A DNA stretch of 64,000 nucleotides from a phage, in the sequence record PX880103.1, one strand, 5' to 3'. Of the stretch, positions 15,346-18,887 are shown piece after piece. The first letter of the stretch is position 1, and each line of letters begins with the position of its first letter. The notes under the pieces were generated by a model, which did no database searches, had not been told where the DNA came from, and worked only from the letters and a program-made list of their open reading frames with translations. A program made the position numbers and the translations under genes.

Positions 15346-15562
15346 ATTGTTTTTCCGTTAAAACAGTAATATCGTAGTAACAGTCAGAAGAAGTTTTAAC
15401 TGTGGAAATTTTATTATCAAAATACTCACGAGTCATTTTATGAGTATAATATTTTTTACCATAAATGATAATAGGCTGTTCTGGTCCTGGAACTTCTAAC
15501 TCGCTTGGGTTAGGAAGTGTAAAAAGAACGGCACCAGAAGTATCTTTAAATCGTAAAATCAT
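15299..15562 (-). CDS. hypothetical protein (nrdA.2 position)
   Basis: 87-aa ORF. Confidence 0.5.
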
Positions 15563-16419
15563 ATTGCCATTTTCCCTTTAATTGCTGGATGCGATTCATA
15601 ATTTTCAAGGATAAAATCTTTCGGTTTCATGTATTCAGTTAACCAGTAAAGCTGTGTTTCGGTGTCACAATTTCCAAACTCTATAGGCCAATCAATTTTA
15701 AGTTCACACAGTTCTTTAGGCTCACGACGTAAAATTTCTTTACATTGCTCAGTATGATTCATATAGATGTGAGTATTACCACCAGAAAATATCAAATCTC
15801 CTGGGATAAGATTACACATCTTAGCCACAATATGCGTCAAGGCAGCATACGAGGCAATGTTGAATGGCAAGCCTAAGAAAACATCTACACTTCTTTGGTA
15901 CCATTGTAAATCAAGATAACCATTACGCACATTAAACTGATAGAACATATGACAGGGCGGTAATGCCATTTGATTGATTTCAGCTGGATTCCATGCTGAA
16001 ACGATTTGACGTCGATCAGTTGGTAATTTTTTAATACGATCAATAGTTTCAACTAATTGATCCACACCACCGAAATCACGCCATTGTTTACCGTATATAG
16101 GACCAAGTTCACCACTATGATATCCTAGGTCTTTAGCCTGGTTTTCATAGTTATCGTCCCAAATAGTTTTACCTTGAATAAGACTACCATGAGTGCGAAG
16201 ACGTAAATCATTAACATTGGTAGAACCGGAAATAAACCATAGAAGCTCAGCAATGCATGCATTCCAAGCGAGCTTCTTAGTTGTTACTGCAGGAAAACCT
16301 TTAGTTAAATCCCAGCGTAATTTAGTACCGAACAAAGCAATTGTTCCTGTGCCTGTTCGGTCATCGGTTTCATAACCATTTTCAAAAATGTCTTTAATTA
16401 AATCTTGGTATTGTTTCAT
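15559..16419 (-). CDS. td: thymidylate synthase, uninterrupted (no intron)
   Basis: 286 aa = T4 Td length; ThyA motifs incl. active-site PPCH; single continuous ORF. Confidence 0.95.
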
Positions 16420-16464
16420 TTAGTACCTTATATAAATTATAATACATTTTATGAAGCTAAATAA

Positions 16465-16812
16465 TCAATACGGTTTAGCATCAAATTTTCTCTCAATTTC
16501 AGGTGTGAAATATAATTCTTTACCACGTTTGGAAAAGCGACCAATAATATGATAATTATTCTCATCAAACGTGATATTACCAATATCCATAGCTTTCAAC
16601 CAAATATCGATATTTCTATCAAGCTTTATGTCAAAATTCCAATACAGAGAACTATTACCGAAAATACTACAAGCGGATTCAGTGAAACAACTGCTATAAA
16701 TCTTGTCTTTAGGAACTACTAATTGATAGACACCTTTAATAAACTGAGGACCCTGCCATTTTGGCTGTTTCACGTCTTTTTCTAATAGAATAGGGTAATA
16801 ATTAAAATTCAT
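16465..16812 (-). CDS. hypothetical protein inserted between frd and td
   Basis: 115-aa ORF with no recognisable motif; occupies an interval that I recall as a direct frd-td overlap in T4. Confidence 0.5.
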   Translation of the reverse strand: MNFNYYPILLEKDVKQPKWQGPQFIKGVYQLVVPKDKIYSSCFTESACSIFGNSSLYWNFDIKLDRNIDIWLKAMDIGNITFDENNYHIIGRFSKRGKELYFTPEIERKFDAKPY

Positions 16813-16831
16813 ATTTCCGCCACGCGTTATT

Positions 16832-17658
<827 letters not shown>

Positions 17659-17969: not shown

Positions 17970-18197
17970 TTATTTTTGGATTAATCCCATATAAAATTTA
18001 GCATCTTCAGGATACATGCCATCACAATACTCATTGGTCATAAAACTAATAAGGTCTTCAAGAGGACCTTGAACTTCAATTTGAATACTAAAGAATTGGG
18101 TATCTTTAATGTAAGCCATACTCAAAGAAGGATAACGATTGCGGATAACTTCGTAAGTGTATTCAAAATCAACAATATCAATATTAACCTTAGCCAT
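17970..18197 (-). CDS. small acidic protein, paralog A (starts [13 protein letters not shown])
   Basis: Internal ATG preferred over track start; clearly paralogous to 18663..18887. Confidence 0.55.
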
Positions 18198-18219: not shown

Positions 18220-18258
18220 TAGGGCAATAGTATCACACTACTACCCTTCTGTAAACTA
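18220..18258 (-). promoter_or_regulatory. sigma70-type early promoter
   Basis: Minus-strand GTTTAC (plus 18251-18256) and TAnnnT -10 upstream of paralog A. Confidence 0.5.
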
Positions 18259-18615
18259 CTTTTTGAAAGTTTTTCGCAAAAGTTCAATGATTTCGTCTAC
18301 ATTGTTTTCATCTACAATGCAGTGAATTTTTGTTACGCCAGAAACTAGGTATTCGTCTTCTTCAGAAGTCGGTTCTTTATATTCACGAAAACAATGAAAT
18401 TCGTCTTCACAGACGTTAAAGTAAAAATGCTTTCCATTTGCGCATTCAATGTGTTTTATTACTCTAAATCCATCAACAAAGAAAGCTTCTTTAACTTCAA
18501 ACCATCCGCCATTTTCTTGAATAATTTTAACTATTGCTGAATTAGAACGTGGACGATAATTAATAAATGTATCAATAAGTCTTGGAACAAGTTCATACTT
18601 TTTACCGATATACAT
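18256..18615 (-). CDS. hypothetical protein
   Basis: 119-aa ORF. Confidence 0.5.
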
Positions 18616-18662: not shown

Positions 18663-18887
18663 CTATTCAATAAATCCTGTGTAAAATTCTACATCTTCAG
18701 CATCCATACCGTCGCAGTATTCATTAACCATAAACTGTTTAAGACGATTTAAAGGACCTTCAATAACAACTGAAACATTACAATTAGGATCATTTAGTGC
18801 GCTTATGATACTAAGTTCAGGATAACGATTACGAATAATTTCTTCAATATATTCAAAATCAACAACATCAATATCAATTTTAGCCAT
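18663..18887 (-). CDS. small acidic protein, paralog B (starts [13 protein letters not shown])
   Basis: Internal ATG preferred; shares RNRYP...EGPL...F..NEYCDGM with paralog A. Confidence 0.55.

Follow-up and report, generated by a model that had tools for sequence, protein, structure and literature searches.

td.1, a small gene of T4-like phages located between those for dihydrofolate reductase and thymidylate synthase, and its probable loss from T4

Between frd and td, the genes for dihydrofolate reductase (DHFR) and thymidylate synthase (TS), the phage sequence record PX880103.1 carries a short open reading frame (ORF), whose identity, history and possible role are considered here. The stretch that we analysed (referred to throughout as the window) is 64,000 nucleotides long, and the ORF occupies its positions 16465..16812 on the minus strand. 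We identify it, with high confidence, as td.1, an ancestral small early gene of the T4-like phages located between the DHFR and TS genes. The gene is already known and has little weight as a discovery: it is catalogued as function-unknown, most T4-like phages carry it in this place, hundreds of GenBank genomes have it annotated, and it bears the name td.1 in the T2H record (AY262132.2). What does change is the T4-centred view of this region, since the textbook ATGA overlap between frd and td is most probably a derived deletion, present in about 10% of the Tequatrovirus genomes, and not the ancestral arrangement. Taken as a whole, the explanation that we favour (the identity with td.1, its ancestry, its loss from T4 and a binding or adaptor mechanism for its product) seems to us likely.

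The ORF had been described in an initial annotation of the window as being 348 bp and 115 residues long and wedged between frd and td, and the ORF list confirms this: it is ATG-started and has 115 codons plus a stop codon. When a 651-bp query over the region was used, 519 phage records were matched, of which 355 cover at least 80% of the query at 95-99% identity. Using the protein, tblastn found 363 phage records with identities of at least 90% (T2, T2H, T6, RB18, RB32 and RB68 among them), together with 217 further phage records at less than 60% identity to the Td.1 of the window. The latter is 98-99% identical, in amino acids, to the td.1 copies of T2H, T6, RB18 and RB68, and the RB18 copy is cross-referenced to RB32ORF229c. 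In particular, the T2H copy (AY262132.2, ABI48932.1) is the same gene: it likewise measures 348 bp and stands between frd and td, its product is 98.3% identical in amino acids, and it shows no substantive difference from the copy in the window; no function is given for it in the GenBank entries or in PHROG. The profile of PHROG 1928 (function unknown) matches residues 4-111 of the 115 with an E-value of 1.5e-35, and all of the 46 aligned family members match this PHROG and no other. Our literature search found no paper discussing the td.1 of T2, and PMC2790892 cites the T2H record, AY262132, solely as a sequence source. One peculiarity of the copy in the window is codon 55 (16648-16650, minus strand), which encodes Leu: the seven other Tequatrovirus and Mosigvirus copies examined all have Pro or Gln in this position, with Pro in every one of the Tequatrovirus copies. 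This residue falls between strands 2 and 3, in a variable region for which part of the model is less confident.

The presence of homologues in the same frd-td slot, across many genera and in distant contigs, indicates that the presence of td.1 is ancestral. Homologues with 26-46% identity follow frd directly, in most cases with an overlap at its stop codon, in the Enterobacter phage MY742, the Klebsiella phages Lion_ER11 and CP-p-KP-21072, the Salmonella phage S16 (Gelderlandvirus), the Citrobacter phage Moon (Moonvirus), the Serratia phage CBH8 (Winklervirus) and the Escherichia phage EcS1 (Kagamiyamavirus). The slot is also occupied by a homologue in Karamvirus and in the Mosigvirus phages AlbertHofmann and OLB35, whose Td.1 is 93% identical to those of the window and of Tequatrovirus, so that at least eight genera are involved in total. 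Considering other genera and metagenomes together, the gene is conserved at 26-66% identity. An exhaustive profile search through 1.84 billion representative proteins retrieved only 42 clusters, essentially all of them 95-140 residues long, and the family is restricted to phages. The most distant clusters that we looked up are again encoded between DHFR and TS genes, on metagenomic T4-like contigs in which Frd and Td share only about 30% identity with those of the window. Altogether, the gene lies between the DHFR and TS genes, on the same strand, in the window and in each of the 16 related loci carrying the family that were inspected. Between genera td.1 diverges faster than its neighbours, with identities of 26-46%, compared with 44-54% for Frd and 70-81% for Td.

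The number of copies varies across the family. In many genera (loci L005 and L007-L011), the td.1 homologue is followed, before td, by another small ORF, a paralogue distinguished by an insert that is conserved and about 20 residues long (APTIxxYKRDPxKY). A hidden Markov model (HMM) of the family counts three tandem copies in locus L012 (3541-4602), on a metagenomic T4-like contig, and two each in L014 (3612-4405) and in five reference phages; the window has a single copy, and the T4 segment has none. A protein of 899 residues (P0045), found through eight short matches in the profile search, is an eight-fold tandem-repeat protein, and this match was rejected as spurious. As side observations on the Mosigvirus loci, frd is longer there (205 residues), its overlap with the start of td.1 is 11 nt, and the spacer between td.1 and td is 13 nt long, compared with 45 nt in the window.

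The situation in T4 (NC_000866) is as the initial annotation had described it. There, frd (145109..145690) and td (start at 145112) overlap directly by 4 bp (ATGA), with nothing between them; in the junction comparison that the same annotation had proposed, T4 lacks td.1 and T2, T6, RB18, RB32 and RB68 carry it. In a three-way alignment, the T4 junction corresponds to the end of the window frd joined to the start of the window td inside a shared TAAATGAAA, with 416 bp removed. The two ends of the removed segment coincide with a 12-nt direct repeat on the minus strand, whose left copy, TAAATGAAATAA (16827..16838), spans the frd stop codon (TGA) and whose right copy, TAAATGAAACAA (16411..16422), spans the td start codon. 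A repeat finder, applied independently of the alignment, returned the same pair (family D3) as 11/12 identical with a spacing of 416, and the single copy left in T4 is the frd/td ATGA overlap itself. Based on these comparisons, we have high confidence that T4 lost td.1 by a precise 416-bp deletion between the 12-nt repeats, TAAATGAAA(T/C)AA, a deletion that also created the ATGA overlap; by parsimony, the event was probably a microhomology-mediated deletion. The absence of td.1 from T4 was read at the frd-td junction, and td.1 has no T4-derived Pfam family, which argues against a relocated T4 copy. Having no td.1, T4 also explains why the gene escaped sixty years of T4 genetics.

Within Tequatrovirus the junction turns out to be a polymorphic slot with three alleles, which was surveyed in an evenly spread sample of 60 out of the 515 records matching the junction of T4. 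The td.1 allele was found in 41 of these (about 68%), 39 of them showing a split match over about 656 bp and two showing a match on the frd side only (one of these two was checked). Six records (about 10%) have the empty, T4-type junction, recognised by an unsplit 240-bp match, and 12 (about 20%) show a third pattern, in which the match runs no further than 7 nt beyond the stop codon of frd; the last record is incomplete and covers td only. In the sole third-pattern case inspected (Escherichia phage UTI-E4, 2621-2827 of its locus), the slot contains an unrelated 68-residue ORF (MSNKLKVKDVPNAMALFICRQ...), which overlaps the stop of frd as well as the start of td, belongs to PHROG 9550 (unknown function) and has no Pfam match. 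The absences of td.1 are explained by one microhomology deletion and one replacement. Of the insertion suggested in the initial annotation, one element survives, the polymorphism of the slot; a mobile insertion as such does not.

That td.1 might be a mobile cassette, or a free-standing homing endonuclease, inserted between frd and td is a reading with some initial appeal. T-even genomes carry seg and mob genes between conserved genes (for mobE, see PMC2790892). Additionally, td.1 is missing from T4 at a precisely defined junction with short direct repeats, its G+C content (0.313) is slightly below that of its flanks (0.37-0.38; the mean of the whole window is 0.357), and two BASEL phage records (MZ501050 and MZ501047) label it as a "putative homing endonuclease". 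The dip in G+C is too small and unremarkable for a foreign origin to be argued from composition. More importantly, no match to GIY-YIG, HNH, LAGLIDADG, His-Cys box or PD-(D/E)XK was found in Pfam (with E-values up to 10 for the window protein and up to 0.1 for its 46 relatives), no Asp, Glu, His or Cys is invariant among the 46 members, and no nuclease appears among the structural neighbours of the modelled protein, which, with its 115 residues, is about half the size of I-TevI (245 residues). The initial annotation had remarked that the ORF is not an obvious endonuclease, and in this it was right; the label in the two records is unfounded. The distribution is not sporadic either, given that the gene occupies this slot in about two thirds of the Tequatrovirus records and in eight genera or more, and td.1 is translationally coupled to frd and its divergence tracks that of the flanking genes. 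The inverted repeats at the locus are AT-rich, at most 14 nt long and at chance level, which leaves no meaningful terminal inverted repeats; the sole direct repeat is the 12-nt pair over the stop and start codons of the neighbours, and neither an integrase motif nor a flanking mobility gene was found at the locus. The spacer between td.1 and td contains no notable hairpin (z -1.6), the promoter-stem-loop motifs (PeSL, PMC2839356) not having been specifically searched. We therefore consider a homing endonuclease or a mobile cassette to be practically excluded, and the proposal of an insertion, as made in the initial annotation, gives way to that of an ancestral gene which T4 lost by deletion.

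The intron of td is equally unrelated to the presence of td.1. In T4, td is split by a group I intron that encodes I-TevI; in BCPEco_001, td.1 coexists with a td that is split and has its I-TevI-sized ORF, and in the window it occurs next to an intronless td, from which it follows that the presence of td.1 does not depend on the intron.

The selection acting on td.1 was assessed with Nei-Gojobori estimates of the ratio of non-synonymous to synonymous divergence (dN/dS). Among Tequatrovirus copies this ratio is 0.01-0.13, very close to the values obtained in the same genomes for frd (0.04-0.12) and td (0.03-0.13). Against the Mosigvirus copies, at a synonymous divergence (dS) of about 0.8, it is 0.03-0.05, corresponding to 30-35 synonymous and 9-10 non-synonymous differences. 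The gene is therefore under strong purifying selection, the constraint being as strong as for DHFR and TS. These values, together with the conservation at 26-66% identity, make td.1 a real gene and not a chance ORF. It is true that it matches no curated family and that it is AT-rich and short, as an ORF arising by chance in a mere intergenic spacer could be; nevertheless, the excess of synonymous over non-synonymous differences, the invariant motif kept by homologues at 26-66% identity and the confident structural model all speak against this, and we regard a chance or non-coding ORF as practically refuted by the conservation pattern. The low ratios also bear on the suggestion, contained in the initial annotation, that the ORF is anti-defence cargo: fast-evolving cargo would not be expected to be as constrained as frd and td, and only the wider notion of a host-directed role survives, as the rival weighed below.

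In the window, the gene order on the minus strand is frd, td.1, td, nrdA.2, nrdA.1 and nrdA. The upstream neighbour of td.1, frd (16832..17413, minus strand), encodes a protein of 193 residues that is 97.9% identical to the Frd of T4, and the downstream neighbour, td (15559..16419, minus strand), encodes 286 residues without interruption, having neither a group I intron nor I-TevI. The td.1 start is 19 nt past the frd stop codon and its own stop is 45 nt ahead of the td start codon. The 19-nt spacer, AATAACGCGTGGCGGAAAT (16813..16831, minus strand), is relatively G+C-rich, contains a Shine-Dalgarno-like GGCGGA 4 nt before the ATG and, in a sequence scan, showed no promoter-like site on the minus strand. 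The 45-nt spacer (16420..16464, minus strand) is AT-rich and faces td: in this stretch there is a sigma-70-like match, TTGATT-18-TATTAT (9/12, at 16468..16439), as well as a TATAAT, and its RNA folding gave no convincing hairpin, being no better than that of shuffled sequence. The AT-rich, promoter-like sequence that the initial annotation had placed upstream of the ORF is thus downstream of it, before td. A promoter would not fit into the frd-td.1 spacer, and td.1 is therefore presumably transcribed together with frd; we infer that it is co-transcribed, and probably also co-translated, with both frd and td.

Some further features of this neighbourhood deserve a brief mention. The td of T2H (432-1292 in its locus) and that of the window have only 85.7% protein identity, with a dS of about 1.2, and the adjacent td.1 copies are 98% identical, which implies an abrupt mosaic boundary within the td.1-td spacer or close to it. 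Upstream of frd, an ORF of 81 residues (17413-17658, minus strand) overlaps the frd start codon at its end; it has no Pfam family, is annotated as hypothetical in RB18 and AndreasVesalius, and has no counterpart in the T4 segment (where frd.1 is next, after a gap), being another T4-absent gene of this cluster. The window additionally contains two paralogous frd.3 genes (Pfam Phage_FRD3, with 51% mutual identity) at 17970-18197 and 18663-18887, both on the minus strand, which flank frd.2 (18256-18615); T4 has a single frd.3.

As for the protein itself, Td.1 is a small protein of about 13.7 kDa, predicted to be soluble and to form an OB-like beta-barrel (OB, oligonucleotide/oligosaccharide-binding), with a pI of 8.5 (mostly 8-9.5 in the family). 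Across the 46 sequences, W19, G91, K95 and G97 are invariant and Q16, G27, Y29, F93 and F102 are nearly so, and no conserved acidic, histidine or cysteine residue is found in this alignment. The resulting family motif (QxxW near the N-terminus, GxY, and GRFxKxGxxxxF near the C-terminus) is complete in the window protein, where it is formed by Q16, W19, G27, Y29, G91-R92-F93, K95, G97 and F102. AlphaFold2, run with the 46-sequence alignment, produced a confident model, with a predicted local distance difference test (pLDDT) of 92.4 and a predicted template modelling score (pTM) of 0.85. According to DSSP, the model contains the strands 6-12, 27-34 and 62-64, a helix at 68-76, and the strands 80-82, 86-96 and 99-104. 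In the order of its elements, b1-b2-b3-helix-b4-b5, the model resembles an OB fold; no significant structural similarity of the model to known OB domains was found.

Searches with sequence and structure place the family apart, in agreement with the initial annotation, which had seen no recognisable motif in the ORF. No Pfam match was accepted for Td.1 at E-values up to 10, or for its 46 relatives up to 0.1; the only one appearing, HlyIII, is noise, being below threshold (E-value 0.041, 14 bits against a cut-off of 26.2) and present in one of the 46 members. Neither Td.1 nor its relatives match anything in NCBIfam or PADLOC, and the PDB sequence search gave no significant match for Td.1 or its relatives (TagH/TarH, with E-values of 0.02-0.9, and SSB, with 1.1, were discarded). 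Foldseek against viral models matched only uncharacterised proteins of T4-like phages. Td.1 is, in this sense, a compact and confidently modelled orphan protein without a structural neighbour, retained between DHFR and TS over a very wide evolutionary range.

What could such a protein do? Given that the family has no enzyme-like conserved residues, Td.1 most likely acts by binding, and we propose that it would be a non-enzymatic binding or adaptor protein, with a single-stranded nucleic acid or a protein partner as its ligand. Judging by its OB-like topology, its basic charge and its conserved aromatic and lysine residues, the most plausible ligand would be a single-stranded nucleic acid, or a protein of deoxynucleotide synthesis or replication; candidate partners would be DHFR, TS or another part of the phage deoxynucleotide-synthesis and replication machinery. 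With td.1 beginning 19 nt after frd in the window, and overlapping the frd stop codon in most other genera, the protein would probably be made together with DHFR and TS. It is dispensable under laboratory conditions, T4 being the example. We put forward only tentatively that Td.1 may bind single-stranded nucleic acid or a protein of deoxynucleotide synthesis or replication.

Several points weigh against this interpretation, or against the wider account of which it is part. The conserved aromatic and basic residues of the predicted barrel are only presumed to be surface-exposed. A conserved position is, by itself, weak evidence that td.1 is functionally linked to DHFR and TS, because frd.1, frd.2, frd.3, nrdA.1 and nrdA.2 also keep their place in distant T4-like contigs. 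T4 and the phages with the 68-residue allele manage without td.1, so a role in thymidylate synthesis cannot be essential, and a copy number of 0-3 and the replacement of alleles are also expected of a gene for host interaction. Finally, the direction of the change in T4 (deletion and not insertion) is taken from parsimony over outgroups and not from a rooted phylogeny.

Some of these points lead to the alternative in which Td.1 is a host-directed accessory or counter-defence protein, neutralising a host factor (for instance, a nucleotide-depleting or a DNA/RNA-targeting defence enzyme), with a position that is simply inherited. Such a role would agree with the slot polymorphism within Tequatrovirus (td.1, empty and 68-residue ORF in about 68%, 10% and 20% of the 60 records), with the tandem paralogues that bring the copy number up to three, with the faster divergence of td.1 relative to Frd and Td between genera, with a family that has no enzyme-like residues and is confined to phages (42 clusters in the whole protein collection searched), and with the dispensability of the gene in T4. 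Nevertheless, the purifying selection is very strong and the alleles of Tequatrovirus and Mosigvirus are almost identical (a dN/dS of about 0.05 at a dS of about 0.8), unlike those of typical arms-race genes, and the family retains the slot even in phages with Frd and Td of about 30% identity. Additionally, no similarity to a known anti-defence protein or defence component was found among the Foldseek viral models or in PADLOC, and the literature search found no paper tying td.1 to a defence phenotype. On balance we consider a host-directed role unlikely, while still regarding it as the main rival.

A more specific proposal, which we regard as decidedly doubtful, is that Td.1 might be a previously unrecognised third partner of the phage thymidylate cycle, namely a small adaptor with a new fold, co-translated with DHFR and TS and tethering these two enzymes to each other or to gp32-coated DNA, or else that it might be a new-fold inhibitor of a host nucleotide-pool defence. 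If the tethering version were true, Td.1 would correspond, in non-covalent form, to the junction region of the bifunctional DHFR-TS enzymes, and T4 would have dispensed with it once frd and td became directly coupled.

Returning to the binding or adaptor role that we favour, the known systems closest to hand are the OB-fold domains that bind single-stranded nucleic acids (for example, HIN, RPA/Teb1, Cdc13 and S1), the order of whose strands the predicted model of Td.1 resembles. In genomic terms, td.1 resembles the short function-unknown genes found among the nucleotide-metabolism genes, namely frd.1 (DUF5417), frd.2 (PF03197), frd.3 (PF05798), nrdA.1 (DUF4326) and nrdA.2 (DUF5496). Like td.1, these small early ORFs of the gene 32 to nrdA region (frd.1 to nrdA.2) hold their position in distant T4-like phages. 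They are present in T4 and hence have Pfam families, whereas td.1, which T4 lacks, has none; none of the five resembles td.1 in sequence, and the family HMM matches td.1 alone in the window. The other comparison is with the seg and mob genes of the T-even phages and with I-TevI, which also lie between or within conserved genes and are polymorphic in presence among close relatives, I-TevI being hosted in T4 by td, the very gene that adjoins the td.1 slot. Unlike all of these, td.1 has no nuclease motif, fold or catalytic residues, its presence is ancestral and syntenic across genera, and it is independent of the td intron.
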